Sequence record: NC_054905.1
From: Enterobacteria phage Kha5h
Reading direction: 5' to 3' (one strand)
Length of the DNA: 64,000 nt
Shown: positions 5,613 through 43,268 of the stretch, piece after piece
Layout of the letters: every line of letters begins with the position of its first letter
Position numbering within the stretch: the stretch's first letter is position 1
Made by a program: the position numbers and the translations under genes
Notes under the pieces: generated by a model
What the model was told of the DNA's origin: nothing
What the model saw: the letters and a program-made list of their open reading frames with translations, nothing else
Databases searched by the model: none

Positions 5613-8600
5613 ATGGCCGAGATTAAAAGAAAGTTCAGAGCAGAAGATGGTCTGGACGCAGGTGGTGATAAAATAATCAACGTAGCTTTAGCTGATCGTA
5701 CCGTAGGAACTGACGGTGTTAACGTTGATTACTTAATTCAAGAAAACACAGTTCAACAATACGATCCAACTCGTGGATATTTAAAAGATTTTGTAATCAT
5801 TTATGATAATCGCTTTTGGGCTGCTATAAATGATATTCCAAAACCGGCAGGAGCTTTTAATAGCGGACGCTGGAGAGCATTACGTACCGATGCTAACTGG
5901 ATTACGGTTTCATCTGGTTCATATCAATTAAAATCTGGTGAAGCTATTTCGGTTAACACCGCAGCTGGTAATGATATTACATTTACTTTACCATCTACCC
6001 CAATTGATGGTGATACTATCGTTCTCCAAGATATTGGAGGAAAACCTGGAGTTAACCAAGTTTTAATTGTAGCTCCAGTGCAAAGTATTGTAAACTTCAG
6101 AGGCGAACAAGTACGTTCAGTACTAATGACTCATCCAAAGTCACAGTTAGTTTTAATTTTTAGTAATCGTCTGTGGCAAATGTATGTAGCTGATTATAGT
6201 AGAGAAGCTGTAGTTGTAACACCAGCGAATACTTATCAAGCGCAATCCAACGACTTTATCGTACGTAGATTTACTTCTGCTGCACCGATAAATATTAAAC
6301 TTCCGAGATTTGCTAATCACGGCGATATTATTAATTTCGTCGATTTGGATAAATTAAACCCTCTTTATCATACAATTGTTACGACATACGATGAAACGAC
6401 ATCAGTACAAGAAGATGGAACTCATTCCATTGAAGGCCGTACATCGATTGATGGCTTTTTAATGTATGATGATAACGAAAAATTATGGAGACTGTTTGAC
6501 GGGGACAGTAAAGCACGTTTACGCATTATAACAACCAATTCTAATATTCGTCCAAATGAAGAAGTTATGGTATTTGGTGCGAATAATGGAACAACCCAAA
6601 CAATTGAACTTCAGCTTCCAACTAATATTTCTGTTGGTGATACTGTTAAAATTTCCATGAATTACATGAGAAAAGGACAAACAGTTAAAATCAAAGCTGC
6701 CGGTGAAGATAAAATTGCTTCTTCGGTTCAATTGTTGCAATTCCCAAAACGCTCAGAATATCCGCCTGAAGCTGAATGGGTTACAGTCCAAGAATTAGTT
6801 TTTAACGGTGAAACTAATTATGTTCCAGTTTTACAACTTGCTTATATTGAAGATTCTGATGGAAAATATTGGGTTGTACAGCAAAACGTTCCAACTGTCG
6901 AAAGAGTAGATTCTTTAAATGATTCTACTAGAGCAAGATTAGGCGTAATTGCTTTAGCTACACAAGCTCAAGCTAACGTCGATTTAGAAAATTCTCCACA
7001 AAAAGAATTAGCAATTACTCCAGAAACATTAGCTAACCGTACTGCTACAGAAACTCGTAGAGGTATCGCAAGAATAGCAACTACTGCTCAAGTGAATCAG
7101 AACACCACATTCTCTTTTGCTGATGATATTATCATCACTCCTAAAAAGCTGAATGAAAGAACTGCTACAGAAACTCGTAGAGGTGTTGCTGAAATTGCTA
7201 CGCAACAGGAAACTAATGCAGGTACTGATGATACTACAATCATCACTCCTAAAAAGCTTCAAGCTCGACAAGGTTCTGAATCATTATCTGGTATTGTAAC
7301 CTTTGTATCTACCGCAGGAGCTACTCCAGCTTCTAGCCGTGAATTAAATGGTACGAATGTTTATAATAAAAACACTAATAATTTAGTTGTTTCGCCAAAA
7401 GCTTTGGATCAATATAAAGCTACTCCAACGCAACAAGGTGCAGTAATTTTAGCAGTTGAAAGTGAAGTAATTGCTGGACAAAGCCAAGAAGGATGGGCAA
7501 ATGCGGTTGTAACGCCAGAAACGTTACATAAAAAGACATCAACTGATGGAAGAATTGGTTTAATTGAAATTGCTACGCAAAGTGAAGTTAATACAGGAAC
7601 TGATTATACTCGTGCAGTCACTCCTAAAACTTTAAATGACCGTAGAGCAACTGAAAGTTTAAGTGGTATAGCTAAAATTGCTACACAAGTTGAATTCGAC
7701 GCAGGCGTCGACGATACTCGTATCTCTACACCATTAAAAATTAAAACTAGATTTAATAGTACTGATCGTACTTCTGTTGTTGCTCTATCTGGATTAGTTG
7801 AATCAGGAACTCTCTGGGACCATTATACCCTTAATATTCTTGAAGCAAATGAGACACAGCGTGGTACACTTCGTGTAGCTACACAGGTTGAAGCTGCTGC
7901 AGGAACATTAGATAATGTTTTAATAACTCCTAAAAAGCTTTTAGGTACTAAATCTACCGAAGCACAGGAAGGTGTTATTAAAGTTGCAACTCAGTCTGAA
8001 ACTGTAGCTGGAACGTCAGCGAACACTGCTGTATCTCCAAAAAATTTAAAATGGATTGTGCAGAGTGAACCTACTTGGGCAGCTACTACTGCAATAAGAG
8101 GTTTTGTTAAAACTTCATCTGGTTCAATTACATTCGTTGGTAATGATACAGTCGGTTCTACCCAAGATTTAGAACTGTATGAGAAAAATAGCTATGCGGT
8201 ATCACCATATGAATTAAACCGTGTATTAGCAAATTATTTGCCATTAAAAGCAAAAGCTGCTGATACAAATTTATTGGATGGTCTAGATTCATCTCAGTTC
8301 ATTCGTAGGGATATTGCACAGACAGTTAATGGTTCACTAACCTTAACCCAACAAACGAATCTGAGTGCCCCTCTTGTATCATCTAGTACTGGTGAATTTG
8401 GTGGTTCATTGGCCGCTAACTCAGCATTTACTATCCGTAACACAGGAACTATGACGCCCCGTATCGTTTTCGAAAAAGGTCCTGCATCTGGTGCAAACCC
8501 GGCACAGTCAATGAGTATTCGTGTATGGGGTAACCAATTTGGTGGCGGTAGTGATACGACTCGTTCGACAGTGCTTGAAGTTGGCGATGAAACATCTTAT

Positions 8601-9485
8601 CACTTTTATTCTCAACGTAATAAAGACGGTAATATAGCGTTTAGCATTAATGGTACTGTAATGCCAATAAATGTTAATGCTTCCGGTTTGATGAATGTGA
8701 ATGGCACTGCAACATTCGGTCGTTCAGTTACAGCCAATGGTGAATTCATTAGCAAGTCTGCAAATGCATTTAGAGCAATTAGTGGTGATTACGGATTCTT
8801 TATTCGCAATGATGCTGCTAATACCTATTTTATGCTCACTGCATCTGGTGATCAGACTGGCGGATTTAATGGATTACGTCCTTTAGCTATTAATAATGCA
8901 TCTGGTCAGGTTACGATTGGTGAAGGCTTAATCATTGCCAAAGGTGTTACTATAAATTCAGGTGGTTTGACTGTTAACTCGAGAATTCGTTCTCAGGGTA
9001 CTAAAACAGCTGATTTATATACCCGTGCGCCAACATCTGATACTGTAGGATTCTGGTCAATCGATATTAACGATTCAGCCACTTATAACCAGTTCCCAGG
9101 TTATTTTAAAATGGTTGAAAAAACTAATGAAGTGACTGGGCTTCCATACTTAGAACGTGGCGAAGAAGTTAAATCTCCTGGTACACTGACTCAGTTTGGT
9201 AACACACTTGATTCGCTTTACCAAGATTGGATTACTTATCCAACGACGCCAGAAGCGCGTACCACTCGCTGGACACGTACATGGCAGAAAACCAAAAACT
9301 CTTGGTCAAGTTTTGTTCAGGTATTTGATGGAGGTAACCCTCCTCAACCATCTGATATCGGTGCTTTACCATCTGATAATGCTACAATGGGGAATCTTAC
9401 TATTCGTGATTTCTTACGAATTGGTAATGTTCGCATTATTCCTGACCCAGTGAATAAAACGGTTAAATTTGAATGGGTTGAATAA
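5613..9485 (+). CDS. 34: long tail fibre proximal subunit gp34
   Basis: 1290 aa; length and sequence as T4 gp34. Confidence 0.96.
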   Translation: MAEIKRKFRAEDGLDAGGDKIINVALADRTVGTDGVNVDYLIQENTVQQYDPTRGYLKDFVIIYDNRFWAAINDIPKPAGAFNSGRWRALRTDANWITVSSGSYQLKSGEAISVNTAAGNDITFTLPSTPIDGDTIVLQDIGGKPGVNQVLIVAPVQSIVNFRGEQVRSVLMTHPKSQLVLIFSNRLWQMYVADYSREAVVVTPANTYQAQSNDFIVRRFTSAAPINIKLPRFANHGDIINFVDLDKLNPLYHTIVTTYDETTSVQEDGTHSIEGRTSIDGFLMYDDNEKLWRLFDGDSKARLRIITTNSNIRPNEEVMVFGANNGTTQTIELQLPTNISVGDTVKISMNYMRKGQTVKIKAAGEDKIASSVQLLQFPKRSEYPPEAEWVTVQELVFNGETNYVPVLQLAYIEDSDGKYWVVQQNVPTVERVDSLNDSTRARLGVIALATQAQANVDLENSPQKELAITPETLANRTATETRRGIARIATTAQVNQNTTFSFADDIIITPKKLNERTATETRRGVAEIATQQETNAGTDDTTIITPKKLQARQGSESLSGIVTFVSTAGATPASSRELNGTNVYNKNTNNLVVSPKALDQYKATPTQQGAVILAVESEVIAGQSQEGWANAVVTPETLHKKTSTDGRIGLIEIATQSEVNTGTDYTRAVTPKTLNDRRATESLSGIAKIATQVEFDAGVDDTRISTPLKIKTRFNSTDRTSVVALSGLVESGTLWDHYTLNILEANETQRGTLRVATQVEAAAGTLDNVLITPKKLLGTKSTEAQEGVIKVATQSETVAGTSANTAVSPKNLKWIVQSEPTWAATTAIRGFVKTSSGSITFVGNDTVGSTQDLELYEKNSYAVSPYELNRVLANYLPLKAKAADTNLLDGLDSSQFIRRDIAQTVNGSLTLTQQTNLSAPLVSSSTGEFGGSLAANSAFTIRNTGTMTPRIVFEKGPASGANPAQSMSIRVWGNQFGGGSDTTRSTVLEVGDETSYHFYSQRNKDGNIAFSINGTVMPINVNASGLMNVNGTATFGRSVTANGEFISKSANAFRAISGDYGFFIRNDAANTYFMLTASGDQTGGFNGLRPLAINNASGQVTIGEGLIIAKGVTINSGGLTVNSRIRSQGTKTADLYTRAPTSDTVGFWSIDINDSATYNQFPGYFKMVEKTNEVTGLPYLERGEEVKSPGTLTQFGNTLDSLYQDWITYPTTPEARTTRWTRTWQKTKNSWSSFVQVFDGGNPPQPSDIGALPSDNATMGNLTIRDFLRIGNVRIIPDPVNKTVKFEWVE

Positions 9486-9493
9486 GAGGTATT

Positions 9494-10609
9494 ATGGAAA
9501 AATTTATGGCAGAGTTTGGACAAGGATATGTCCAAACGCCATTTTTATCGGAAAGTAATTCAGTAAGATACAAAATAAGTATAGCGGGTTCTTGCCCGCT
9601 TTCTACTGCAGGACCATACGTTAAATTTCAGGATAATCCTGTAGGAAGTCAAACATTTAGCGCAGGTCTTCATTTAAGAGTTTTTGACCCTTCCACCGGA
9701 GCATTAGTTGATAGTAAGTCATATGCTTTTTCGACTTCAAATGATACTACATCAGCTGCTTTTGTTAGTTTCATGAATTCTTTGGCGAATAATAGACTTG
9801 TTGCTATATTAACTAACGGAAAAGTTAATTTTCCTCCTGAAGTAGCATCTTGGTTAAGAACCGCCGGAACGTCTGCTTTTCCATCTGATTCTATATTGTC
9901 AAGATTTGACGTATCATATGCTGCTTTTTATACTTCTTCTAAAAGAGCTATCGCATTAGAGCATGTTAAACTGAGTAATAGAAAAAGCACAGATGACTAT
10001 CAAACTATTTTAGATGTTGTATTTGACAGTTTAGAAGACGTCGGAGCTACCGGGTTTCCAAGAAGAACGTATGAAAGCGTTGAGCAATTCATGTCAGCGG
10101 TTGGTGGAACTAATAACGAAATTGCAAGATTACCAACTTCAGCTGCTATAAGTAAATTATCTGATTATAATTTAATTCCCGGAGATGTTCTTTATCTTAA
10201 AGCTCAGTTATATGCTGATGCCGATTTACTTGCTCTTGGAACTACAAATATATCTATCCGTTTTTATAATGCATCAAATGGATATATTTCTTCAACACAA
10301 GCTGAATTTACTGGGCAAGCTGGGTCATGGGAATTAAAGGAAGATTATGTAGTTGTTCCAGAAAACGCAGTAGGATTTACGATATATGCACAAAGAACTG
10401 CACAAGCTGGTCAAGGCGGCATGAGAAATTTAAGTTTTTCTGAAGTATCAAGAAACGGCGGTATTTCAAAACCTGCTGAATTTGGCGTCAATGGTATTCG
10501 TGTTAATTATATCTGTGAATCTGCTTCACCTCCGGATATAATGGTACTTCCTACACAAGCATCGTCTAAAACTGGTAAAGTGTTTGGACAAGAATTTAGA
10601 GAAGTATAA
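9494..10609 (+). CDS. 35: long tail fibre hinge protein gp35
   Basis: 371 aa, synteny. Confidence 0.93.
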   Translation: MEKFMAEFGQGYVQTPFLSESNSVRYKISIAGSCPLSTAGPYVKFQDNPVGSQTFSAGLHLRVFDPSTGALVDSKSYAFSTSNDTTSAAFVSFMNSLANNRLVAILTNGKVNFPPEVASWLRTAGTSAFPSDSILSRFDVSYAAFYTSSKRAIALEHVKLSNRKSTDDYQTILDVVFDSLEDVGATGFPRRTYESVEQFMSAVGGTNNEIARLPTSAAISKLSDYNLIPGDVLYLKAQLYADADLLALGTTNISIRFYNASNGYISSTQAEFTGQAGSWELKEDYVVVPENAVGFTIYAQRTAQAGQGGMRNLSFSEVSRNGGISKPAEFGVNGIRVNYICESASPPDIMVLPTQASSKTGKVFGQEFREV

Positions 10610-10614
10610 ATTGA

Positions 10615-10640
10615 GGGAGCCTTCGGGTTCCCTTTTTCTT
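10615..10640 (+). terminator. hairpin plus T-run after gene 35
   Basis: gggagccttcgggttccc followed by tttttcttt. Confidence 0.55.
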
Positions 10641-10648
10641 TATAAATA
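10641..10648 (+). promoter_or_regulatory. late promoter (TATAAATA) for genes 36-37
   Basis: exact TATAAATA 23 nt upstream of the gene 36 ATG. Confidence 0.7.
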
Positions 10649-10671
10649 CTATTAAAATAAAGGGGCATATA

Positions 10672-11334
10672 ATGGCTGATTTAAAAGTAGGTTCAACAAC
10701 TGGAGGCTCTGTCATTTGGCATCAAGGAAATTTTCCATTGAATCCAGCCGGTGACGATGTACTCTATAAATCATTTAAAATATATTCAGAATATAATAAA
10801 CCACAAGCTGCTGATAACGATTTCGTTTCTAAAGCTAATGGTGGTACTTACGCCGCGACTGTTCGATTTAATGGAGGAGTACATGTTCCTACTATAGGTA
10901 GTAGTCAACAGTGCGGTGTTTATCCAGGTAACGGTGATGCAGCTACTTTTGCTATGGCAAATATTGACATCGTTTCGTGGAATGGTATTGGTTTTAAATC
11001 ATCACAAGGTTCAGCAGACCGAACTGTTGTAATTAATGCACGTAATGGTGATATTAGTACAAAAGGCGTTATGACAGCAGTAGGTCAAATAAGAAGTAAT
11101 GCAGTTGCTCCTATAGCAGTGAATGACCTTACTAGAAAGGACTATGTTGATGGAGCAATAAATACTGTTACGGCAAATGCGAACTCTAGGGTGCTACGAT
11201 CTGGTGACACCATGACAGGTAATTTAACAGCGCCAAACTTTTTCTCGCAGAATCCTGCATCTCAACCTTCACATGTTCCACGATTTGACCAAATCGTAAT
11301 TAAGGATTCTGTTCAAGATTTCGGCTATTATTAA
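10672..11334 (+). CDS. 36: long tail fibre distal connector gp36
   Basis: 220 aa, synteny. Confidence 0.93.
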
Positions 11335-11342
11335 GAGGACTT

Positions 11343-14300
11343 ATGGCTACTTTAAAACAAATACAATTTAAAAGAAGCAAAACCGCAGGTGCACGTCCTG
11401 CTGCTTCAGTATTAGCCGAAGGTGAATTGGCTATAAACTTAAAAGATAGAACAATTTTTACTAAAGATGATACAGGAAATATCATTGATCTAGGTATTGC
11501 TAAAGGCGGTCAAATTGATGGAAATGTAACTATTGATGGAACTTTACGCGTCAATGGACCAATAAACAACTTTGGAAATTTTTCTACAAGTGGTACTATT
11601 ACGGCAAGTAATATTGTTTCTGCTACAGTATTCAGATCAACATCCGGTTCATTTTATACAAGAGCAATAAATGATACTGCAAATGCCCATCTTTGGTTTG
11701 AAAATACGAATGGATCGGAGAGAGGGGTTTTATATTCAAAACCACAGTCTGAAAATGAAGGCGTAATTACAATGCGCGTTCGCCAAGGAACCGCAGCAGG
11801 GGCTCAAAATTCAGAATTTCATTTCATTTCTACTGATGGCGGTATCTTCCAGGCACGCAAATTAACTGCTTTAACTTCTATTAGTACACCAACTATTAGT
11901 GTTAATTTAATTAATCATGATTCTAAAGCCTTTGGACAATACGATTCACAATCATTAGTTCAGTATGTTTATCCTGGAACCGGTGAAACAAATGGTGTAA
12001 ACTATCTTCGTAAAGTTCGAGCTAAATCAGGTGGCACTATGTGGCATGAGCTTTGTACTGCTCAGACTGGCCAGGCTGATGAAATGTCTTGGTGGACAGG
12101 TAATACTCCATCATCTAAACAATATGGCATTCGTAATGACGGACGAATGGCAGGCCGTAATAGCCTTGCATTAGGTACATTCACTACAAATTTCCCGTCT
12201 AGTGATTATGGCAACGTCGGTGTAATGGGCGATAAATATCTTGTTCTCGGTGACACTGTAACTGGCTTGTCATACAAAAAAACTGGTGTATTTGATCTAG
12301 TTGGCGGTGGATATTCTGTTGCTTCTATTACTCCTGACAGTTTCCGTAGTACTCGTAAAGGTATATTTGGTCGTTCCGAGGACCAAGGCACCACATGGAT
12401 TATGCCTGGCACTAATGCCGCTTTCTTGTCTGTTCAAACGCAAGCTGATAATAACAATGCTGGAGACGGCCAGACGCATATTGGGTACAATGCTGGCGGT
12501 AAAATGAGTCATTATTTCCGCGGTAAAGGCAAAACTAATATTAATACTCAGGAAGGTGTAGACGTTAACCCAGGTATATTGAAGTTAATCACCGGCGGTG
12601 AAAGTATTAGCTTTAATGCCGCAACTGGAAGTATTAATTCTACATTAGCTTTTCGTCTTAATAAAGGCATAATTATTGATGGACCTGATAATCAGGGATT
12701 CCAGTTTAACGCCCCGACCGCTGCAGATGGTACTAGAAGTATATATTGGAACAGTGGTACTCGCGCAGGTCAAAACAAAAGCCCTGTTACAGTTAAAGCA
12801 TGGGGAAATTCATTTAACGCATCTGGTGATCGTAATCGTGAAACAGTCTTTGAAGTATCAGATGGGCAAGGTTACCATTTTTATTCTCAACGCGTAGCTC
12901 CTGCACCTGGTTCGACTGTCGGGCCTATTCAACTCCGAGTTAATGGTGGTTTATTAACTTCAGGTAGTATTGTTACTTCTGGTTCTATTACAACCGAATC
13001 AAGCTTAGTTGCAAATAATGGATTATCTGTAAACGGACAAGCTAAATTTGGTGGAACAGCAAATGCATTAAGAATTTGGAACGCCGAATATGGCGCTATT
13101 TTCCGTCGTTCTGAAAGTAACTTTTACATTATTCCAACCAATCAAAATGAAGGCGAAAGTGGAGACATTCACAGCTCTTTAAGACCTGTGAGAATAGGAT
13201 TAAGCGATGGCATGGTTGGGTTAGGAAGAGATTCTTTTATAGTAGATCAAAATAATGCTTTAACTACGATAAACAGTAACTCTCGCATTAATGCCAACTT
13301 TAGAATGCAATTAGGGCAGTCGACATATATTGATGCAGAATGCACTGATGCCGTTAGACCTGCAGGGGCTGGTTCATTTGCCTCGCAAAATAATGAAAAC
13401 GTCCGTGCTCCGTTCTATATGAATATTAATCGCACAGATACAAGTACTTACGTTCCAATTGTTAAACAGAGATACGTACAAAATAATAGTTGCTATTCTA
13501 TTGGTACTTTAATTAATGGCGGTAATTTTAGAGTTCATTATCATGAAGGTGGTGATGGCGGTTCTACTGGCGCGATTATAAAGGATTTAGGTTGGGAATT
13601 TAATAAAAACGGTGATTTTTACTCTCCTGGTAAATTAGGTGCTGGAAATATTCGTATCGGAACAGACGGTAATATTACAGGTGGTTCTGGTAATTTTGCT
13701 AACTTGAATACCACATTAAACCGTAAGGTCAATTCCGGATTTGTAACATACGGTGCAACTGCTGGATGGTATAAATTCGCTACAGTAACGATGCCACAAT
13801 CTACTTCTACTGTTTCATTTACTATAACTGGTGGTAAAGGATTTAATACTGGACTGTTTACACAGTGTGCTATAACAGAAATTGTTCTTCGTACTGGTAA
13901 TGACCGCCCAGCAGGTTTAAACGCCGTGATGTATACCAGAACAGCTGCAGGTCTTACTGATATTGCTGTAGTTAATACCTCAGGAAATACATATGATATC
14001 TATGTTGAATCGGGTACTTATGCCAACCAATTAGCTTATACTTGGCATACAGTTGATAATGCTACCGTAGAAGTTATCGGCGCTTTTGGTCCTACTCAAG
14101 ACCCGGTAGATTCTTTGCCGGCTAATTATGTTAAAGGCCAAGTAGCTAACATGCTTAACAACCTGGTAGACACAGGTAAAGTAAAACGTTATGTAGCAGA
14201 ATCTGAAATTGCTATTAATAACCAAACGGGTCTTCGTATTACGAGTAATTCTGATAGATCAGGTTCTAATTCCGTTTTATTTCGAAATGACGGTGGAAGC

Positions 14301-15281
14301 TTCTATATTTTACTGACTGACAAAAACTCTTCAGACGGCGATAATAAAGCAACTGAAGGTGATTGGAATGGAAAACGACCGTTTTCAATCGATATGACTG
14401 CTGGTACTGTTCGTCTTGGCGAAAATACTTCTTTTGATAAAGATATTACTATTAATGGAAACATTAATTCACGAGTTAAAGCTGCCGGACAATGGAGTGT
14501 TAGCTTTTCTGCTATTTCAGATGTGACTCGCGACAATTCTGCATTCTTAGCGAATACGGGTGGCATTTCCAAGACAAGTCAAGCTTATTACCCGCTATTT
14601 TCTGGATACAGTTTTTTAACTGACGCGGGTTATCGACAATCGTTTGAATTTGGATGGTTAGGTGTTTCTGGTACTTGGCGCCAAGGCATTATTCGCATGC
14701 GTGGTGACAGCGCATCGGGGCAACAGGCTCGTTGGACTTTTGATATGGATGGAACATTTTATGCTCCTATACTATCATGCGGATCTGCGAGAGCATTCGG
14801 TGTCAATACATCAAATGGTCTCGGTGGAAATAGTATAACATTTGGTGATAGCGATACTGGTATTAAGCAAAATGGCGATGGATTATTAGACATATATGCG
14901 AACAGCGTACAAGTATTCCGTTTCCAAAACGGTGATTTGTACTCATACAAAAATATAAATGCTCCAAACGTTTATATTCGTTCTGATATTCGTTTAAAAT
15001 CCAACTTCAAACCTATCGAAAATGCGCTTGATAAAGTTGAAAAACTTAACGGTGTCATTTACGATAAAGCTGAATATATCGGTGGAGAGGCAATTGAAAC
15101 TGAAGCGGGTATTGTGGCTCAAACGTTACAAGACGTTTTACCAGAAGCTGTCCGTGAAACAGAAGACAGTAAGGGTAATAAAATACTCACTGTTTCTTCT
15201 CAAGCCCAGATTGCTCTTCTGGTTGAAGCTGTGAAAACACTTTCTGCTCGTGTAAAAGAACTTGAATCTAAACTTATGTAA
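11343..15281 (+). CDS. 37: long tail fibre distal subunit gp37, T2-type with C-terminal extension
   Basis: 1312 aa (T4 gp37 is ~1026 aa); conserved N-terminus [39 protein letters not shown]. Confidence 0.95.
14982..15281 (+). other. C-terminal intramolecular chaperone-like domain of gp37 (peptidase S74-like, predicted auto-cleaved)
   Basis: last ~100 aa begin [30 protein letters not shown], resembling the Ser-Lys motif of endosialidase / T5 pb1 chaperone domains. Confidence 0.6.
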
Positions 15282-15282
15282 A

Positions 15283-15300
15283 AGAGGGCTTCGGCCCTCT
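15283..15300 (+). promoter_or_regulatory. intercistronic stable hairpin between genes 37 and 38
   Basis: agagggc ttcg gccctct. Confidence 0.4.
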
Positions 15301-15311
15301 AAGGATTTTTA

Positions 15312-16103
15312 ATGGCAATTGTAGGTGTTCCTGGCTGGATTGGTGAATCTGCCGTGAATGAAACTGGACAACGCTGGATGGATGCTGCAATGAAAGCAGT
15401 TCGCGTTTCAGTTCCTGGCTGGATGAGTTCAATGGCTGGACAATCTAAAGAAGTATATTATAGTGTTGGTGCTAGTAATTCTTATAATAAAGACACACTA
15501 ATAAATTGGATAAAAGCTCAAGGCAGTACTCCTGTTGTTATTACTATTACAGGAAATATTGTTTCTCAATCTACTGGTGTTCCATGCTTAGATTTTCCTA
15601 GCTCATTAACTAATGCGTATGTTACCTTAAATATTAATAGCGGGGTTCATGTATTAGGTCGGGGAGGAAATGGCGGAAGTAACTCTGCTGGTAGAGCAGG
15701 AGGAACTGCAATAAATAACGGAATTGGAACTCGTTTAAGAATAAACAATAACGGTATTATTGGTGGCGGTGGCGGTGGCGGCGCTGGTGCTAGATACCAT
15801 CCTTTCCCTCAAATGGATATGATATTTGGTGGCGGCGGAGGTCGTCCATTTGGCGCTGCTGGCGCAGCAGGAGGTGGCGCAGCGGCAGCATCTGCTGGTA
15901 CAATTTCTGCTCCTGGTAAAGGTACTGTTTCTGGGGTTCACTATGGAGGAAATGGTGGAGATTTGGGAGCTGCTGGCAAATCTTCATATATTCAAGGTGG
16001 TACTGGAGGAACTGTTCACTCGGGTGGTGCTGCGGGTAAAGCTGTTACTGGTAATGCTCCAACTTGGACTAAAGTTGGTACAATATACGGTTCAAGAGTA
16101 TAA
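15312..16103 (+). CDS. 38: receptor-recognising adhesin gp38, T2/T6 type
   Basis: 263 aa; conserved MAIVGVPGWIGESAVNETGQRW and ...GNAPTWTKVGTIYGSRV ends; several glycine-rich motifs separating variable segments. Confidence 0.88.
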   Translation: MAIVGVPGWIGESAVNETGQRWMDAAMKAVRVSVPGWMSSMAGQSKEVYYSVGASNSYNKDTLINWIKAQGSTPVVITITGNIVSQSTGVPCLDFPSSLTNAYVTLNINSGVHVLGRGGNGGSNSAGRAGGTAINNGIGTRLRINNNGIIGGGGGGGAGARYHPFPQMDMIFGGGGGRPFGAAGAAGGGAAAASAGTISAPGKGTVSGVHYGGNGGDLGAAGKSSYIQGGTGGTVHSGGAAGKAVTGNAPTWTKVGTIYGSRV

Positions 16104-16135
16104 TTTTTGAATAAATATCCTTAAAAGGAGGGTCT

Positions 16136-16792
16136 ATGGCAGCACCTAGAATATCATTTTCGCCCTCTGATATTCTGTTTGGTGTTCTAGATCGCTTGTT
16201 CAAAGATAACGCTACCGGGAAGGTTCTTGCTTCCCGGGTAGCTGTCGTAATTCTTTTGTTTATAATGGCGATTGTTTGGTATAGGGGAGATAGTTTCTTT
16301 GAGTACTATAAGCAATCAAAGTATGAAACATACAGTGAAATTATTGAAAAGGAAAGAAATGCACGCTTTGAATCTGTCGCCCTGGAACAACTCCAGATAG
16401 TTCATATATCATCTGAGGCAGACTTTAGTGCGGTGTATTCTTTCCGCCCTAAAAACTTAAACTATTTTGTTGATATTATAGCATACGAAGGAAGATTACC
16501 TTCAACAATAACTGAAAAATCACTTGGAGGATATCCTGTTGATAAAACTATGGATGAATATACAGTTCATTTAAATGGACGTCATTATTATTCTGACTCA
16601 AAATTTGCTTTTTTACCAACTAAAAAGCCTACTCCCGAAATAAACTACATGTACAGTTGTCCATATTTTAATTTGGATAATATCTATGCTGGAACGATAA
16701 CCATGTACTGGTATAGAAATGATCATATAAGTAATGACCGCCTTGAATCAATATGTGCCCAGGCGGCCAGAATATTAGGAAGGGCTAAATAA
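16136..16792 (+). CDS. t: holin
   Basis: 218 aa, MAAPRISFSPSDILFGVLDRLFKDN..., matches T4 holin T. Confidence 0.96.
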   Translation: MAAPRISFSPSDILFGVLDRLFKDNATGKVLASRVAVVILLFIMAIVWYRGDSFFEYYKQSKYETYSEIIEKERNARFESVALEQLQIVHISSEADFSAVYSFRPKNLNYFVDIIAYEGRLPSTITEKSLGGYPVDKTMDEYTVHLNGRHYYSDSKFAFLPTKKPTPEINYMYSCPYFNLDNIYAGTITMYWYRNDHISNDRLESICAQAARILGRAK

Positions 16793-22900: not shown

Positions 22901-23164
22901 TCATAGCTCAATCTCAGCGATTTTCATTTCATTACTATTAATAGCCTCTTTAAGACTATCTGAAAGAATTACATTCCAGTGGTCATTCATATGACCATTA
23001 ACTAAGCGTGTAATTTCTTCAGGAGTTGAAAAATAAGGCTGATCAGACTCCCAATGCGATAATCCTAAGCGAGTATAAATCATGCCTTCATCATCGCTCG
23101 AATATTCAACTGACACAAACTCATCAGTTATTTTATGTTTAGCGTAATAAAATTTAAATTTCAT
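22901..23164 (-). CDS. hypothetical protein (87 aa)
   Basis: ATG 23164 preceded by GGAG; track ORF begins at upstream TTG. Confidence 0.55.
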   Translation of the reverse strand: MKFKFYYAKHKITDEFVSVEYSSDDEGMIYTRLGLSHWESDQPYFSTPEEITRLVNGHMNDHWNVILSDSLKEAINSNEMKIAEIEL

Positions 23165-23201
23165 TTTATTCTCCAAATCCGTATCAGTAGTTGATAGTTG
23201 T

Positions 23202-23231
23202 ATAGTACCACGGTCCTTGTGGTATGTAAAC
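23202..23231 (-). promoter_or_regulatory. phage early promoter (GTTTAC, 18 nt, TACTAT)
   Basis: minus-strand GTTTAC 23226..23231, TACTAT 23202..23207. Confidence 0.5.
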
Positions 23232-23249
23232 CGTTTTGTGAAAAAAATT

Positions 23250-23807
23250 TTAAATGGAAAGATACCATCCGTTGTAGTTGCTTTTTCTTACAACCTTACG
23301 AAGGTCTTCTCTGTCACCGATGAACTTCGGAGTGTACTGGATGACACCTGGATGAATTTCTTTAGTGTTGAATATAATTATACAGTCAGCGACTTGATGA
23401 TTTAGAATGGGCCCTAAATTTATTCCAGAACCATATGGATACTCTCCGCTGCATCCCGTTGTTACCGAAATCCAACGCGAGTCAGTTTGATGTGTTTTGA
23501 CTTCTACACGAAGCCCGCAATATTTTGGATGCGCTAAAACATCCCATGCATACGTGTACGGATCATCGACATTTTCTTGGCCTTTATTGACATATCCGCT
23601 TAGCCAATCTGCCACAAAAAACTCTGCGTACACAGCGATACGGCATCTTTCGATAACTTCTGCTTTATCCTGGTTCGGGTTTTGTTTTAAAGAGTATCTT
23701 GCTGTATCAGCAATTTTGACCTTCATTTCACTAGTCAAGTCACTGTTCGATAGGGTAAATGTCGGAATCTGAAATAGTCTCTGTAAACCCGGATTCGTTT
23801 TCTGCAT
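23250..23807 (-). CDS. denB: endonuclease IV (DenB)
   Basis: 185 aa, MQKTNPGLQRLFQIPTFTLSNSDLTSEMKVKIADTARYSL... Confidence 0.9.
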   Translation of the reverse strand: MQKTNPGLQRLFQIPTFTLSNSDLTSEMKVKIADTARYSLKQNPNQDKAEVIERCRIAVYAEFFVADWLSGYVNKGQENVDDPYTYAWDVLAHPKYCGLRVEVKTHQTDSRWISVTTGCSGEYPYGSGINLGPILNHQVADCIIIFNTKEIHPGVIQYTPKFIGDREDLRKVVRKSNYNGWYLSI

Positions 23808-30854: not shown

Positions 30855-31124
30855 TTAATTGAACAGTGGAGCGATGCGTTTCAGAAGAGTAGCAGCACCT
30901 TTGGCAAATTTTACATCATGAAAAACAGTTTCTTCTTCCGTTACAACACGAGCTTTAATGTTTTCACAATCCCAATTTTTACGAACAATCTTCAAAAGCT
31001 GCAGTAAATCTTTACATTCAGCAATATCGATAACACATCCACGAGAATCTTCCATTATCGCACGATAACCGTAAGCCATACCATAATCATTGAAAGATTG
31101 CTCGATGATAATTAAATTTTCCAT
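30855..31124 (-). CDS. hypothetical protein (89 aa)
   Basis: ATG 31124 preceded by the conserved leader GGAGAATAAA. Confidence 0.55.
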   Translation of the reverse strand: MENLIIIEQSFNDYGMAYGYRAIMEDSRGCVIDIAECKDLLQLLKIVRKNWDCENIKARVVTEEETVFHDVKFAKGAATLLKRIAPLFN

Positions 31125-31221
31125 TTTATTCTCCAAGTTGTTTTCTGTATCAGTAGTTGATATTGATATAGTACCATAATCAACTACTGATGTATATAGT
31201 TTTATGAAAAAATTTTAAACT

Positions 31222-31713
31222 TTATGCATAGCGAGCTTTGCTGTAGTGTTTAATCCAACTTTCAGGAATGACTTTGTATGTTCCTAAAAATACCGCGTTG
31301 TATAACTTAACGCCATCTTCTACCCATTGATCAGTAATGTATGCACACATAGCGCGAGTACGGTTAACAACACCTTCCTCACCTTCAGTAAATTCAAACT
31401 CATAAGGAGCAACGAACTTGATAGCTTGACCGAGTTTCCACTTAAAGTCTACACCTACATGCGAAGTATCAATCGTTTCAATTCCTTTAGCGGGAACAGC
31501 TTTCAAAAACGCAGGCTCAAGAAATTTCCATCGAACATAACCAAACTGAGGTTTAGACATTCCATCTTTAGGAATGATACGCACTTTTACTTCAGAATCT
31601 TCATCTTTAACACCATGTTTAAGCTGAATGCTTACGACTTCAACCAATTTTCCTGCTGCTTTAGAACGGGATTTATCAGATACACGAGCAATTTCACCGA
31701 TATTAATATTCAT
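31222..31713 (-). CDS. motB: MotB (modifier of transcription)
   Basis: 163 aa, MNINIGEIARVSDKSRSKAAGKLVEVVSIQLKHG... Confidence 0.8.
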   Translation of the reverse strand: MNINIGEIARVSDKSRSKAAGKLVEVVSIQLKHGVKDEDSEVKVRIIPKDGMSKPQFGYVRWKFLEPAFLKAVPAKGIETIDTSHVGVDFKWKLGQAIKFVAPYEFEFTEGEEGVVNRTRAMCAYITDQWVEDGVKLYNAVFLGTYKVIPESWIKHYSKARYA

Positions 31714-31786
31714 AATTATCTCTCACTTGTTAAAAAGATTTTATACTCCGCAGGACCATTATACTCTGGTCCCAAGAGTTTGTAAA

Positions 31787-32224
31787 CTAGCTTACACGAA
31801 CATTAATCACTGCGCTACGAGGAACTACAGAGTATTCTCCAGCATGAACTACGTTCAGAAGTTCAACACCATCTTCAATCCACTGATCAGTCACCCATCC
31901 ACCCACAGGATTCGCGAATGGACGACGAATATAAACTGCCTTACACAGCAGATCAGTTGGATCTTCAGGTTTTTCAATTTCTGTCAATAGACTAAAATCT
32001 TTTTCATAAATAATAAGCGATGATACCATTCCATAATAGTTTCTAATTTCAATATACATCATACCGATAAGAATTCCGCTATTAACACTAATAACAGTAA
32101 AAGGATATCCGCCAGTTAAACCAAGAAGTTCACAAAACTTATTATGAGCTGTATTAGACAGTACCGAAAAATTCTTAATTTCATCAAATTTTTTCAATTG
32201 ATAAACAGCATTATTTTTAATCAT
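31787..32224 (-). CDS. hypothetical protein with MotB C-terminal-like domain (145 aa)
   Basis: C-terminus VTDQWIEDGVELLNVVHAGEYSVVPRS aligns with MotB ITDQWVEDGVKLYNAVFLGTYKVIPES. Confidence 0.6.
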   Translation of the reverse strand: MIKNNAVYQLKKFDEIKNFSVLSNTAHNKFCELLGLTGGYPFTVISVNSGILIGMMYIEIRNYYGMVSSLIIYEKDFSLLTEIEKPEDPTDLLCKAVYIRRPFANPVGGWVTDQWIEDGVELLNVVHAGEYSVVPRSAVINVRVS

Positions 32225-32234
32225 GATTTTCTCT

Positions 32235-32777
32235 TTAATCTAAAGTAATAAAGCCTTTTAATTCGGCATGTGATTTGCGGAACATTACTTGGTGCCCGCC
32301 AATGATAACTTGGTCATCAGGTACTTCGTATACAGCGAGATAAAATCCTTTAGAAGCTAATTCTTCACGCTCTTCTCGTGTGAACCATCTCATCATATCA
32401 TATTCGCTAGCGAAAGCAAAATGATAAAGAGCTATAAACCATCCTGGAATATAGTGATCTACGCCTACATATTCTTCTTTCTCAAAATTAGTATTAATTG
32501 CTATATTAGCATTTTTAACTAATAATTTGTCTTCATGCGGCACAGGAATTCTTTTATTATCATTACTATGATGCATAAAATTGGGTCTGTCATAACCTAC
32601 GCGTAATAACCACTCTTCACTCCATGAATCTATTATACTCCTGTACGGAGTTATTTGAACACAAAGATTTCGACGTATTGTTATAGCATCTTCATAATTA
32701 AGAATACTAAACGATGATTCAACACGATAAATTTTCATTTTATTATCCTCAGTAGCTATGGTGTTATAATACCACAA
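32235..32777 (-). CDS. hypothetical protein (180 aa)
   Basis: track ORF. Confidence 0.55.
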   Translation of the reverse strand: MWYYNTIATEDNKMKIYRVESSFSILNYEDAITIRRNLCVQITPYRSIIDSWSEEWLLRVGYDRPNFMHHSNDNKRIPVPHEDKLLVKNANIAINTNFEKEEYVGVDHYIPGWFIALYHFAFASEYDMMRWFTREEREELASKGFYLAVYEVPDDQVIIGGHQVMFRKSHAELKGFITLD

Positions 32778-33980: not shown

Positions 33981-34212
33981 ATTTAATTAGTAATTTACAG
34001 ACACTTTCATCTAGTGTAATTACCGTATCTGTATTACTGTGATATGATTGTTTTTCAATTCGTTTAATTGCTAATATAGTATCACTTATAAGATAAAGCT
34101 TATGAAGGAGCTCAGCTCCTGTTACCATAACATCGAGATTATCTTGCTTATTAGTATGCTTCCTTATACCATCTATTAGACGATTTAAATATTTTGAATT
34201 GATGTTAATCAT
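33952..34212 (-). CDS. hypothetical protein (86 aa), possible third paralog
   Basis: weaker similarity (IKRIEKQ...VITLDESVCKLL). Confidence 0.45.
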   Translation of the reverse strand: MININSKYLNRLIDGIRKHTNKQDNLDVMVTGAELLHKLYLISDTILAIKRIEKQSYHSNTDTVITLDESVCKLLIKFEEAIRGNN

Positions 34213-34218
34213 ATAGCC

Positions 34219-35538
34219 TCACACATAAAATACATCATAACGACCACGAGTTACACCAACATAAAGAAGTTGTTGAGCTAATTCAGCATCTGCATAATGA
34301 ATACAAGGTGTATAAATGAAAGCACGGTCTACAGACATACCCTGAGCTTTATGGAATGTTGATGCAGGAAGTGCTTTCACTTTACTGAACTGTGATTTAG
34401 CATCCCAAAAATCACTCCACGGAGCTTTTCCGCCTTTGTTCCAATTTTTATAAGTTTCTGCCGTTTTACCTAAAAATAAATTAAACTTATATAGCTCTTC
34501 ATCAGATGAAATTATTTTAATCTTTTCACGATAATATTCATCATCGCCGTAAGTTTCTACTGTTAAATCCCAATGACGAATTAAGTATTCTCCAGGAACA
34601 CCACGAGCTTTAACAAACGTTGATGTATACTCTGCTTCTATAATACGAACTAATTGTCCGTTATTAAAAATAATTTCTGACACAGGCTTTCCATCAATTT
34701 TATATGTTTTAATTAATGGTTCCTGCATTACAATAATTTCACCAACAATAAAATCTTTATCAGTTTCAAAAATCTTTTTACGAATAATGCTATTTAACTT
34801 GTCAACAGATTTATTCGTAAATGCCATTACGCGATTTTCAAACAAATCATCTAAAGATTTGACGATTGAAAAATAATTTACCATAAAATCGCGTAAAGCG
34901 GTATCACCAGTAAATCCACGTACTCCATGCCCGTCAACAACTTTATCATAAATCCACTTACCGTTACGAACATCAGTAGCTACATCAATAATAGGAGCAT
35001 TACTGCGTTTAACTTCAGTAAGTTCACACTGATAAAAATCTTTGTGTGTAAAGAATGGACTGATATAAGCAGTATTTTCTCCTGGATCAACAGGTCTAAT
35101 TTGCTTATTATCACCTATTCCAATTATAGTACACCAAGGTGGAATAGTTGAAAGCAGAATTTTAAATAGCTTTCTATCATACATTGACACTTCGTCGCAG
35201 ATTAATACCCTGCATTTAGCTAAATCTGGTACTTCCTTCTGCTCAAAGAGGACATTTTCTTCATATGTTACCGGGTTAATTTTGAGAATACTGTGAATAG
35301 TACTCGCTTCTTTCCCTGATAGTTTTGAAAGAATCTTTTTAGCCGCATGAGTAGGAGCTGCTAAAATAATACCAGTTTCACCCGTAGATATTAAAGCTTC
35401 AATGATGAACTTAGTAAGAGTAGTCTTACCAGTACCAGCAGGTCCATTAATAGTTACATGATGTTTCTTTTCTTTAATAGCATTCATAACAATGTTAAAG
35501 ACATTTTTCTGGCCTTCGGTCAAATCATCAAATGTCAT
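34219..35538 (-). CDS. dda: Dda DNA helicase (SF1B)
   Basis: 439 aa, Walker A GPAGTGKTT. Confidence 0.95.
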   Translation of the reverse strand: MTFDDLTEGQKNVFNIVMNAIKEKKHHVTINGPAGTGKTTLTKFIIEALISTGETGIILAAPTHAAKKILSKLSGKEASTIHSILKINPVTYEENVLFEQKEVPDLAKCRVLICDEVSMYDRKLFKILLSTIPPWCTIIGIGDNKQIRPVDPGENTAYISPFFTHKDFYQCELTEVKRSNAPIIDVATDVRNGKWIYDKVVDGHGVRGFTGDTALRDFMVNYFSIVKSLDDLFENRVMAFTNKSVDKLNSIIRKKIFETDKDFIVGEIIVMQEPLIKTYKIDGKPVSEIIFNNGQLVRIIEAEYTSTFVKARGVPGEYLIRHWDLTVETYGDDEYYREKIKIISSDEELYKFNLFLGKTAETYKNWNKGGKAPWSDFWDAKSQFSKVKALPASTFHKAQGMSVDRAFIYTPCIHYADAELAQQLLYVGVTRGRYDVFYV

Positions 35539-40140: not shown

Positions 40141-40377
40141 TTAACCACCTATTTCTGTAGGCGTAAACATTGCAGCATTCTTAGTTTTCCAGTCAGCTGC
40201 ATCAGAAACTACAGTAGAATATGCCGCCTTTTCAGAAGGAAAGGTCTGATAATAAGAATCTGCAATACGATGCTCGTTAGAATAGATTTCAAATGGAACA
40301 GAAACTTCCATACCTTTAACTTCTTTGCCTTCACCTGCTGGATGAGTAAAGGTCTTGATGTTAACGAAACCACCCAT
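40141..40377 (-). CDS. soc: small outer capsid protein Soc
   Basis: 78 aa; ...YQTFPSEKAAYSTV... resembles T4 Soc. Confidence 0.75.
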   Translation of the reverse strand: MGGFVNIKTFTHPAGEGKEVKGMEVSVPFEIYSNEHRIADSYYQTFPSEKAAYSTVVSDAADWKTKNAAMFTPTEIGG

Positions 40378-40411: not shown

Positions 40412-41248
40412 TTATAAACCATTTTCAAACCTCTTTATCATATTTATATAGTTTTCATCGGGATAACCTAGACTAACTGCTAACTTTCTAAAATTGACAT
40501 ATTTAGGTTTGTTGTTATTAATCCATAATTCTCTAAGCTCTTTTTCATAATTCCATTTAAGTTGATTTCTGCGTGCAGTTTTGCTTAAAGTTTTTCCTTT
40601 AGCTTTTAAAGCTTTTTCGGATGATTGTTTTAATTTTTGAATATTTAAAACTTCTTCTATAGATAAATTATTTTCCTTTGAATACCTTATGCAAAAATCT
40701 TTTACTACGGCTATTAGGCAATTTTTGTGAGTACCTAAAATTTCTGGGTTATTTTCTTCAACTAAAATTCCCCAATATCTTCGGTAGCGAGGCATATCCC
40801 TTGAAATCCAGTCATTATACCAAAAATCAAAGTTGGAATACATGAAAGATTTTCTTTTGCGAAGAGTATCTTGGTTTATCCATTGCTCACGTTTATCAGC
40901 CCATAACTTAATAGTAAAGTCTTTCTCTAAGTCAGAAAGCTTCTTAAATTGCGAGCTATTTACTGAGGTCATTCTCTGGAATGCATTCAGCAATCCAAAT
41001 CTTCCAGTTGAACATAAGAGATAGTGAACATATATGTGTTGATATATTGGGAGATATACTCTATTCCAAGGATATATTTTAAAATCACTATACTCAGGAA
41101 ATGCGCATTTAGGAAGTATATGATGGGCTTCTGTTTTAGATTTAATGTGAGTGTTTAACTTATACTTATCTATAATTTTTAAGTACTCATCTAAAAGTTC
41201 CCATTGCGGGAACTTTTCTTTAAGAGCAGATTTGAAATTAATATCCAT
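40412..41248 (-). CDS. putative HNH-family homing endonuclease
   Basis: 278 aa from ATG 41248; EAHHILPKCAFPEY...NRVYLPIYQHIYVH fits an HNH motif, basic C-terminal half; start overlaps the 3' end of gene 56. Confidence 0.65.
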   Translation of the reverse strand: MDINFKSALKEKFPQWELLDEYLKIIDKYKLNTHIKSKTEAHHILPKCAFPEYSDFKIYPWNRVYLPIYQHIYVHYLLCSTGRFGLLNAFQRMTSVNSSQFKKLSDLEKDFTIKLWADKREQWINQDTLRKRKSFMYSNFDFWYNDWISRDMPRYRRYWGILVEENNPEILGTHKNCLIAVVKDFCIRYSKENNLSIEEVLNIQKLKQSSEKALKAKGKTLSKTARRNQLKWNYEKELRELWINNNKPKYVNFRKLAVSLGYPDENYINMIKRFENGL

Positions 41249-41756
41249 TATCTTGACGTTCAAAATTATGTTTGTTCTTCAGATAATAAAGTTTAAAGAT
41301 TTCTTCAGCCGTAAGACCGAGACCTTGGAACATGTTCAGAACGAAATGAAGAATATCAATCATTTCGAATTTAATTTCCAACTGGTCTTGTGGAGACAAA
41401 TCAGTAATTAAAGTTTCACGACGTTCACCATGTTGAGCTTTCCAAGGCTTCCATACAGCAGATGCATCTTTTTCGCCATTGCTCATACCACCAAGAGAAG
41501 TCAATAGTTCGCGGAATTCATCATCAATATAATCTTTCTGATTACGCAGCCAATCAACAACTTCACCCGCAGTAGCCAAATCATCAGGATGACGGTTATA
41601 TTCAGGTTTATCTTTAGCTAAACGAACCTGAAGAGATTTCTGCATATCAAGCATAACTTGCAGCGGGTCTTTTTCATCACCGAGAATATCCCAGTATTCA
41701 TTTTGAGCTTTATCAGCGCCTTCAATCAGTTGACTACATTCGTTGAAATGTGGCAT
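41238..41756 (-). CDS. 56: dCTP pyrophosphatase gp56 (MazG-like)
   Basis: 172 aa, sequence and position. Confidence 0.88.
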   Translation of the reverse strand: MPHFNECSQLIEGADKAQNEYWDILGDEKDPLQVMLDMQKSLQVRLAKDKPEYNRHPDDLATAGEVVDWLRNQKDYIDDEFRELLTSLGGMSNGEKDASAVWKPWKAQHGERRETLITDLSPQDQLEIKFEMIDILHFVLNMFQGLGLTAEEIFKLYYLKNKHNFERQDNGY

Positions 41757-43055: not shown

Positions 43056-43057
43056 TT

Positions 43058-43222: not shown

Positions 43223-43268
43223 ATTAACCTCTATTCATAAAAGCATTAAAAATTTGGTCATCAATAGA
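43220..43268. repeat. 49-bp direct repeat, copy 1 (gene-junction repeat)
   Basis: 48/49 identical to 43578..43626; covers the last 14 codons, stop, and next start codon. Confidence 0.9.

Follow-up and report, generated by a model that had tools for sequence, protein, structure and literature searches.

Phages T2 and T6 and Salmonella phage S16 provide the described precedents for the fibre tip considered here. In T2 and T6, gp37 reportedly undergoes proteolytic processing and receives gp38 as a cap (Trojet 2011, PMC3157838, citing Drexler 1986), and in S16 it is reported to be cleaved between DLNVS and SDRRIKK (PMC7917993). The same article gives a predicted cleavage site between DVYIR and SDGRLKI for the fPS phages, and cites S16 work on the role of tryptophan 'prongs' in the N-terminal domain of gp38. 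The present analysis concerns genes 37 and 38 of Enterobacteria phage Kha5h (NC_054905.1), within a window of 64,000 nt, i.e. the whole stretch of DNA analysed. The module is an ordinary, well-described T-even receptor-binding tip of the T2-like rather than the T4-like kind; nothing in it is new, and GenBank contains annotated copies that are nearly identical. Genes 37 and 38 can be assigned with high confidence to a T2-type T-even long tail fibre, as the genes for its distal half-fibre and tip adhesin, and the same confidence attaches to the whole mechanism proposed below.

Upstream of the module lie gene 34 (gp34; 5613..9485), gene 35 (gp35; 9494..10609) and gene 36 (10672..11334, + strand), whose product (Pfam Phage_T4_gp36, E 6.9e-38) is the distal hinge connector that takes the gp37 N-terminus. 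Gene 37 (11343..15281, + strand, ATG start) encodes a 1312-aa precursor of the distal subunit of the long tail fibre, gene 38 (15312..16103, + strand) a T2-type tail-fibre tip adhesin of 263 aa, as recognized from the list of open reading frames and Pfam, and holin gene t occupies 16136..16792. The limits that a preliminary description had given for the module (11343-16103) are right to the base. The order 37, 38, t, with gene 38 directly 3' of an S74-bearing gene 37 and 5' of t, recurs in T2, T6, S16 and Bas43. An exact-motif search located the T4-type late promoter motif TATAAATA at 10641..10648 (+ strand), 24 nt 5' of gene 36, as the sole such motif between the copy belonging to gene 34 (5571) and position 17500; judging from established knowledge of T4 late promoters, the late transcript of 36-37-38(-t) likely starts there. 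RNA folding gives an intercistronic hairpin between genes 37 and 38, AGAGGGC-UUCG-GCCCUCU (15283..15300, + strand; MFE -13.4 kcal/mol, z -2.07), that was scored as terminator-like and is followed by AAGGA, the Shine-Dalgarno sequence of gene 38. Alignment finds this hairpin unchanged in T2, Bas39, Shfl2 and JLBYU24, with a related one in T4, and it may help to stabilize or process the mRNA.

In the proposed mechanism, gp37 would be synthesized as a precursor of 1312 aa, and three such chains would form a beta-helical shaft, with the 99-residue C-terminal Peptidase_S74 chaperone nucleating and registering trimer folding from the C-terminal end. The S74 domain would then remove itself through autoproteolysis between Arg1213 and Ser1214, dependent on Ser1214 and Lys1219, and would thereby bare a hydrophobic trimer end (...NVYIR) on which gp38 could dock through its N-terminal domain, which is conserved and bears Trp residues. 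The adhesin would be retained in the virion, its glycine-rich core (a polyglycine-II sandwich) displaying four variable loops that would touch an outer-membrane protein and so govern host range, the primary receptor of this allele most likely being Tsx. We infer the cleavage of gp37, its capping by gp38, the composition of the virion and the receptor from relatives, and none of the evidence gathered here contradicts a T2-type fibre-tip architecture.

The C-terminal intramolecular chaperone (gp37 aa 1214-1312; 14982..15278, + strand) lies at the extreme end of the 1312-aa fibre protein and is recognized by the Pfam profile PF13884 (E 3.4e-15; 56.5 bits, the cut-off being 22), which matches aa 1214-1271 over profile positions 1-58 of 58. 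The preliminary description had proposed a self-cleaving, chaperone-like domain here, quoting a peptide that begins at aa 1213 (nt 14979) and placing the cleavage near 14982. Profile, fold and motif all back the domain, the profile search, a failure of which it would have counted against itself, bears out the assignment, and Ser1214, which would be the first residue of the released domain in NVYIR/SDIRLK, is encoded exactly there (codon 14982-14984; Lys1219, codon 14997-14999). The putative catalytic Ser-Lys dyad sits in an S-D-x-R-x-K motif at the N-terminal boundary of the domain, and in an alignment of 39 diverse homologues Ser1214, Asp1215 and Lys1219 are invariant and 90 % or more of the sequences share Arg1217. 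The predicted auto-cleavage between Arg1213 and Ser1214, followed by domain release, lines up with the S16 and fPS sites. In a single-sequence phmmer search against the PDB, the C-terminal 119 aa of gp37 matched the MyRF ICA domain 7DC3 (E 8e-4) and S16 gp37, and did not reach the endosialidase and GA-1 chaperones, to which the likeness is at the level of fold only. An AF2 model of aa 1150-1312 (mean pLDDT 85.7, and >90 across the chaperone domain) predicts the S74 fold of beta-hairpins and a long C-terminal helix, and its top Foldseek matches in the PDB were 7DC3 (E 3.5e-6; TM 0.56/0.65), the endosialidase chaperone 3GW6 (3.5e-4) and the GA-1 chaperone 3GUD. In the comparison with T2 and T6 gp37, suggested at the outset, both carry the same S74 domain, and the last 162 aa (1151-1312) are 100 % identical to those of T2. 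That the domain is instead a degenerate remnant kept uncleaved at the fibre tip is barely credible, given that it retains the catalytic Ser and Lys, both of them invariant, that it is identical to a T2 domain whose processing is published (as reported in PMC3157838), and that an uncleaved domain would, by the S16 work that PMC7917993 presents, obstruct the docking surface for gp38.

After cleavage, the mature fibre would terminate distally in gp37 aa 1150-1213 (14790..14981, + strand), a stretch that ends in the strand NVYIR and is 100 % identical to T2. This stretch aligns with the S16 gp37 tip (6F45_A), the mature chains of which are only 68-72 residues long in 6F45, and, by analogy with the S16 structure as presented in PMC7917993, it is the predicted surface on which the N-terminal domain of gp38 docks.

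For gp38, the preliminary description had proposed a T2/T6-type adhesin with conserved termini and glycine-rich motifs separating variable segments, and Pfam, structural homology and an alignment of eight adhesins agree with it. The protein matches the profiles of both the adhesin body (GP38, PF05268; 235 bits, E 9.6e-70, aa 47-263) and the N-terminal attachment domain (Gp38_N, PF21721; 64.7 bits, E 7.3e-18, aa 1-42), as well as phrog_2056, 'host specificity' (E 7e-102), and its family is settled by the homology of aa 8-261 to S16 gp38 (PDB 6F45_D, E 1.7e-48). The attachment domain (aa 1-46; 15312..15449, + strand) has a mean pairwise identity of 79 %, and Trp9, Trp22 and Trp37 are invariant in the adhesin alignment. 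Glycine makes up 60 of 263 residues (23 %), with runs of seven at 151-157 and five at 173-177. In the specificity domain (aa 116-263; 15657..16100, + strand), glycine-rich motifs alternate with four hypervariable segments, HVS1 (aa 158-172, 15783-15827), HVS2 (aa 185-201, 15864-15914), HVS3 (aa 205-211, 15924-15944) and HVS4 (aa 223-237, 15978-16022), all on the + strand, and the C-terminal end is conserved; across the eight adhesins, the glycine blocks and C-terminus show mean pairwise identities of 72-90 %, the four segments 29-43 %. By sequence, then, gp38 is an adhesin of the T2/S16 type, and since S16 gp38 was crystallized on the gp37 tip (6F45), it would be located at the virion fibre tip and bind the receptor directly.

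Several database records nonetheless name homologues 'distal long tail fiber assembly catalyst' or 'tail assembly protein', as would suit a gp38 that serves solely in assembly, as a chaperone of the T4 kind, is not part of the virion and leaves receptor binding to the gp37 tip. Such a role is extremely improbable. The 183-aa gp38 of T4 is unrelated and matches no Pfam family, whereas the protein here belongs to PF05268 and matches an adhesin crystallized in complex with the gp37 tip. Furthermore, gp37 lacks the receptor-binding C-terminus of T4: T4 gp37 gives no alignment past aa 844, and the Collar and Phage_fiber repeats that Pfam detects in T4 gp37 are not detected in the gp37 of this phage. 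In the same Pfam comparison, S74 is present in gp37 of T2, T6 and S16 and absent from that of T4. A T4-type fibre tip, with a T4-like gp37 C-terminus and a T4-type gp38, is thus not what the locus encodes.

Along its entire length gp37 is spanned by phrog_1699, the distal subunit family (1182 bits), and it shares 99.6 % aa identity with JLBYU24, 92 % with Bas43 and Shfl2 and 65 % with T2 (full length); with T4 gp37 the figure is 69 %, over aa 1-844 only. Its shaft contains a domain homologous to the C-terminal trimerization domain of gp34 (aa 492-617; 12816..13193, + strand; Pfam Gp34_trimer, E 1.7e-10), and aa 464-671 match gp34 structures 4UXE/5NXF in the PDB (E 4e-15). Calling the protein an extended gp37, as was done initially, gives the right count of 1312 aa and the wrong impression of an unusual length, for T2 has 1341 aa, Shfl2 1311 and Bas45 1302, and the T2 class as a whole spans 1260-1341 aa. 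The term misleads because 1312 aa is normal for the class and the S74 domain comprises just 99 residues; the chaperone domain was likewise ruled out as the cause of gp37 length, T6 carrying the same domain in a protein of 994 aa.

Internally, gp37 is a patchwork of T4-like, T2-like and Bas43-like stretches. The preliminary description had set a mosaic tip in a window otherwise most similar to T4, and only the mosaic tip survives. Outside the module, the median identity of 500-nt tiles is 96.0 % to T4, 96.4 % to T2 and 96.2 % to T6, and the notion of a T4-like backbone with a foreign tip was dropped because tiling against T4, T2, T6 and JLBYU24 shows the backbone to be equidistant from the three classical T-evens; by this measure it is a generic Tequatrovirus backbone. 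The evidence for mosaicism is of another kind, namely the gp37 patchwork together with a block of near-identity to JLBYU24. A mismatch map against that phage delimits a recombination block of about 6.3 kb (approximately 10470..16750) that takes in the end of gene 35, genes 36-38 and most of t. The block is 99.7 % identical to JLBYU24, with 0-7 mismatches per 250 nt and tile identities of 98-100 %, and its flanks, at ~96 % (about 4 % diverged; tile median about 96 %), typically have 5-40. Searches with both flanks returned matches of only ~95-96.5 %, so that the collection contains no close relative of the whole window, and the flanks have different best matches there. It has to be weighed whether the near-identity of the cassette reflects vertical descent under strong purifying selection, with no mosaic acquisition. 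Structural genes are conserved in general, and some non-fibre tiles (e.g. 19001, 50501 and 42501) also reach 99-100 % to JLBYU24; however, the fibre-tip genes are the most variable region of T-even genomes, T4, T2 and T6 tiles there reaching just 17-57 %, the block edges near 10470 and 16750 are sharp, with synonymous-level divergence falling about tenfold inside, and the patchwork of gp37 and the different best matches of the flanks also speak against it. Vertical descent is hence judged very unlikely, and the sequence comparisons indicate that the whole fibre cassette was exchanged by recombination among Tequatroviruses.

The primary receptor is the weakest step of the explanation. It is most probably Tsx, the nucleoside channel of Escherichia coli, because gp38 is 99 % identical to that of Bas43, a phage whose primary receptor is given as Tsx in the BASEL table. 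The adhesin differs from that of JLBYU24 by one residue, of Bas43 by two (R128G and Q228K toward Bas43) and of Shfl2 by six; a literature search found no receptor data for JLBYU24, Kelasse or Shfl2. A T6-like set of all four HVS (Trojet 2011) is not present: HVS1 (..PFPQM..) alone resembles T6/Bas39, and HVS2-4 differ from both, and therefore gp38 carries a second, Bas43/Shfl2-type set. This departure from the Tsx-type set of T6/Bas39 lends weight to a receptor other than Tsx (OmpA, OmpF, FadL or LPS), reached through HVS2-4 or through the change at residue 128, with the architecture otherwise as described. Phage Mi, which combines a T6-like HVS1 with novel HVS2-4, does not use Tsx, and single-residue changes can switch receptor (Trojet et al., PMC3157838); moreover, gp38 of the OmpA-dependent Bas45 is still 81 % identical overall. 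Residue 128 (nt 15693) is Arg here and Gly in JLBYU24, Bas43 and Shfl2, i.e. it is private among the four closest alleles, and Gly128-to-Arg is the sole aa change from JLBYU24 gp38. It falls in a glycine-rich block, outside the variable segments, at a position where G, S, A and N already occur across adhesins. Given also that the four HVS of the Tsx-dependent Bas43 are identical save for Q228K, and that published trees place close gp38 relatives on a common receptor (PMC12032242), a non-Tsx receptor is a real but minor possibility. It is unlikely that Gly128-to-Arg is a host-range mutation by which receptor use has been changed or widened compared with the Tsx-dependent, Bas43-type adhesin.

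With Tsx as the probable receptor, the practical use of the analysis is in annotation and host-range prediction. The label suggested for gp38 is T2-type adhesin, Bas43/Shfl2 allele group, probable Tsx target, which would help in composing phage cocktails or foreseeing resistance through tsx loss. Beyond this, the module adds one instance to the cassettes exchanged in the distal-fibre region of T-even phages and raises no new mechanistic question.

Compared with known systems, the nearest modules by DNA identity are those of Escherichia phage JLBYU24 (OK272476; 99.8 %, with gp37 five residues apart), Shigella phage Shfl2 (93.4 %) and Bas43 TadeuszReichstein of the BASEL collection (MZ501106; 92.8 %), the last of which is experimentally Tsx-dependent. 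T2 shares the order 36-37-38-t, the 37-38 hairpin, the Pfam families of gp38, a similar gp37 length and the identical C-terminus, with chaperone domain and cleavage motif; it differs in the gp37 shaft (just 18-60 % identity over aa 51-200 and 800-1150), in gp38 (63 % identical, with other variable segments) and in its receptor, FadL/OmpF as against probably Tsx. The S16 tip complex, PDB 6F45, offers a solved template for both gp37 and gp38, in which the chaperone domain has cut itself off and gp38 comprises an N-terminal attachment domain and a polyglycine-rich sandwich, although S16 gp38 is 49 % identical, S16 gp37 is far shorter (749 aa), cleavage there is S/S rather than R/S, and the phage binds Salmonella OmpC. 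T4 shares gp37 aa 1-844, the flanking genes and a related hairpin, but its gp37 has its own receptor-binding C-terminus (Collar domain and His-rich repeats) without S74, and its gp38 is an unrelated chaperone outside the virion. With the chaperones of endosialidases, the T5 L-shaped fibre, GA-1 and MyRF (PF13884), the gp37 domain has in common the profile family, the Ser-Lys motif at its start and the predicted fold, at a sequence identity of just 16-28 %; what sets it apart from these is that its passenger is a T-even fibre shaft, the newly exposed end of which would serve as the docking site of a separate adhesin.

The stretch at 11343-16103 encodes a real and correctly read feature, a canonical T2-type distal fibre. 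According to a six-frame ORF list, it lies within a co-directional run on the + strand that comprises gp34 (5613-9485), gp35 (9494-10609), gp36 (10672-11334, Pfam-confirmed), the distal long tail fibre subunit gp37 (11343-15281, 1312 aa), the small tip adhesin gp38 (15312-16103, 263 aa) and holin t (16136-16792, confirmed by Pfam as a T holin). ORF list and peptide positions reproduce exactly the coordinates and descriptions of gp37 and gp38 in the preliminary description. On the + strand between 4000 and 17500, the exact T4 late-promoter motif TATAAATA occurs only twice, once ahead of gene 34 (5571) and once ahead of gene 36 (10641). The spacer between genes 37 and 38 contains a hairpin (15283-15300, +) with a 7-bp GC-rich stem and a UUCG loop (-13.4 kcal/mol) that is identical in T2, the BASEL phage Bas39, and the relatives Shfl2 and JLBYU24, with a related version in T4. 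A second, similar GC-rich hairpin with a UUCG tetraloop is found in the 35-36 spacer (10613-10634, +). Both look like the stable hairpins of the C(UUCG)G type that T4 mRNAs have long been known to carry between cistrons.

PHROG 1699 ('long tail fiber protein distal subunit') spans the whole of gp37 with 1182 bits. Within the protein, Pfam places a Gp34_trimer-like shaft domain at aa 492-617, mirrored in a PDB search by matches to T4 gp34 fragments, and Peptidase_S74 ('chaperone of endosialidase', PF13884), an intramolecular chaperone domain, at aa 1214-1271 (56.5 bits, E 3.4e-15; cut-off 22 bits). The PDB search also pairs chain A of 6F45, the solved gp37-gp38 tip complex of Salmonella phage S16, with aa 1158-1310, and phmmer with the last 119 residues alone finds 6F45_A as well as 7DC3, the self-processing ICA domain of human MyRF, whose relationship to S74 is recognised. 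When aa 1150-1312 served as the database query, 96 proteins were returned, most of them carrying PF13884; in a 39-sequence alignment from that search, Ser1214, Asp1215 and Lys1219 never vary, and Arg1217 is kept in at least 90 %. These residues make up the S-D-x-R-x-K motif, which carries the Ser/Lys catalytic dyad of the S74 family. An AlphaFold2 model of the same residues, built from that alignment, has a mean pLDDT of 85.7, exceeding 90 in the chaperone part, and its top Foldseek match in the PDB is the MyRF ICA domain (E 3.5e-6, TM 0.56/0.65), followed by the endosialidase intramolecular chaperone 3GW6, the GA-1 chaperone 3GUD and the mature S16 tip. Profile matches, fold and motif support the chaperone domain; the profile searches, whose failure would have told against it, thus bear it out, and the assignment stands. 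Pfam finds S74 in the gp37 proteins of T2, T6 and S16, but not in T4 gp37, which has Collar and Phage_fiber repeats instead. The qualifier 'extended' fares less well, since 1312 aa is typical of the T2-type class (T2, 1341; Shfl2, 1311; Bas45, 1302; Bas39, 1260); T6 gp37 has 994 aa yet bears the chaperone domain, and the excess over T4 is mostly shaft.

The peptide first taken to open the chaperone-like domain begins at aa 1213 (nt 14979), and the Ser codon of SDIRLK occupies 14982-14984, where cleavage had been placed. S16 gp37 is reported to cleave itself at the Ser-Ser bond in DLNVS|SDRRIKK, uncovering the docking surface for gp38, and related Yersinia phages have DVYIR|SDGRLKI aligned at that site (PMC7917993). 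Alignment of the corresponding motif here, NVYIR|SDIRLKS, with both sites puts the predicted scissile bond at Arg1213-Ser1214 (nt 14981/14982), and cleavage would free 99 residues. The last 125 residues of T2 gp37 are those of the present protein, and compared by segments the two are 100 % identical from aa 1151 onwards; T2 and T6 gp37 are reported to be proteolytically cleaved and capped by gp38 (Trojet et al., PMC3157838, citing Drexler et al.). In 6F45, the S16 tip chains as deposited have just 68-72 residues, which fits a loss of the chaperone domain. The pre-cleavage tip (aa 1150-1213, 14790-14981) is 50-74 % identical to many 'phage tail protein' entries from E. coli, Salmonella and Shigella without S74, which suggests a segment common to the tail fibres of unrelated prophages.

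The adhesin gp38 is covered by Pfam GP38 (E 9.6e-70) and Gp38_N (E 7.3e-18), belongs to PHROG 2056 ('tail fiber protein; host specificity') and has S16 gp38 as its best solved relative (6F45_D, E 1.7e-48 over aa 8-261). T4 gp38, a different protein, has no Pfam match. As first described, the protein is glycine-rich: 23 % of its residues are glycine, including one run of seven (G7) and one of five (G5). Its alignment with the adhesins of Bas43, Shfl2, Bas39, T6, T2, Bas45 and S16 bears out the proposed architecture of conserved termini and glycine motifs separating variable segments: mean pairwise identity among the eight is 79 % (aa 1-46), 78 % (116-157), 90 % (173-184), 72 % (212-222) and 81 % (238-263) in the conserved parts, alternating with 34, 43, 29 and 29 % in the four variable segments (HVS1-HVS4). 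This is the layout of glycine-rich motifs and hypervariable segments defined by Trojet et al. (PMC3157838). Trp9, Trp22 and Trp37, invariant in all eight, are the 'prongs' described for S16 (PMC7917993).

Two residues (R128G and Q228K) distinguish this gp38 from that of Bas43 (TadeuszReichstein), one (R128G) from that of JLBYU24 and six from that of Shfl2. In the BASEL supplementary table, Bas43 is entered as Tsx-dependent with LPS deep-core as terminal receptor, and the receptors given for Bas39, Bas45 and T2 are Tsx, OmpA and FadL, respectively; a 2025 study showed receptor recognition to be shared among closely related gp38 proteins (PMC12032242). Near-identity to the Bas43 adhesin, together with such sharing, makes Tsx the best guess, and a probable one. 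Of the four variable segments, however, HVS1 alone is like its counterpart in the classical T6 set, and the precedents of phage Mi and of receptor switches through a single residue call for caution (PMC3157838). Codon 128 (15693-15695), within a glycine-rich block, specifies Arg here and Gly in the three closest alleles (JLBYU24, Bas43 and Shfl2), and is the sole amino-acid difference from JLBYU24. Arg128 is a possible host-range substitution and, being private to this gp38, adds a caveat to the call for Tsx.

Comparison of 500-nt tiles with the syntenic parts of four phages gives median identities outside the fibre-tip module of 96.0 % (T4), 96.4 % (T2), 96.2 % (T6) and 96.6 % (JLBYU24), so that the backbone, once considered most similar to T4, shows no particular likeness to that phage. 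Within the module (tiles 11001-16001), the means are 41, 57, 18 and 99.6 %, respectively. A base-level map against JLBYU24 reveals a quiet block at ~10470-16750, with 0-7 mismatches per 250 nt vs typically 5-40 in the flanks; searches with either flank give best matches of just ~95-96.5 %, and the top phages differ between flanks. Within gp37, aa 51-200 and 701-1150 are matched by Bas43-type fibres only, aa 201-400 are nearest T4, aa 501-700 match T2, and aa 1151-1312 are those of T2. The JLBYU24-like block and this internal patchwork bear out the mosaic tip proposed earlier and make the cassette mosaic at two scales.

Elsewhere, identity to at least one of the four phages collapses at 23001-23500, 31001-32500, 34001-34500, 43001-44000 and 48001-48500, the last absent from T4 and 98-99 % identical in T2 and T6; these patches are probably the usual T-even insertion/deletion and homing-endonuclease polymorphisms. 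The four phages have hardly any DNA, or none, that corresponds to tiles 40501-41500. A 283-aa ORF at 40412-41263 (-), flanked by soc (40141-40377) and a gene 56 dCTPase-like ORF (41238-41756), matches the PHROG homing endonuclease families phrog_655 (E 9e-34) and HNH phrog_12434, with no Pfam match; in T4, this place is taken by another endonuclease, segF. Between DNA polymerase gene 43 (50893-53589) and regA (53917-54285) sits a 95-aa ORF (53670-53957, -) of the 'Phage RB18 ORF43.1' family (PF25760, E 5e-30), and tile 53501 is just ~33 % matched in the four phages. An Frd.2-family ORF (1531-1917, -; PF03197, E 7e-34), whose DNA is just 16-24 % matched in them, reads as a divergent allele amid an otherwise ~97 % conserved neighbourhood.

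Mosaicism is well-known behaviour of the T-even fibre-gene locus. The mechanism, structural template and receptor logic of such fibres are all already published, and an annotated GenBank copy of the module exists that is 99.8 % identical.
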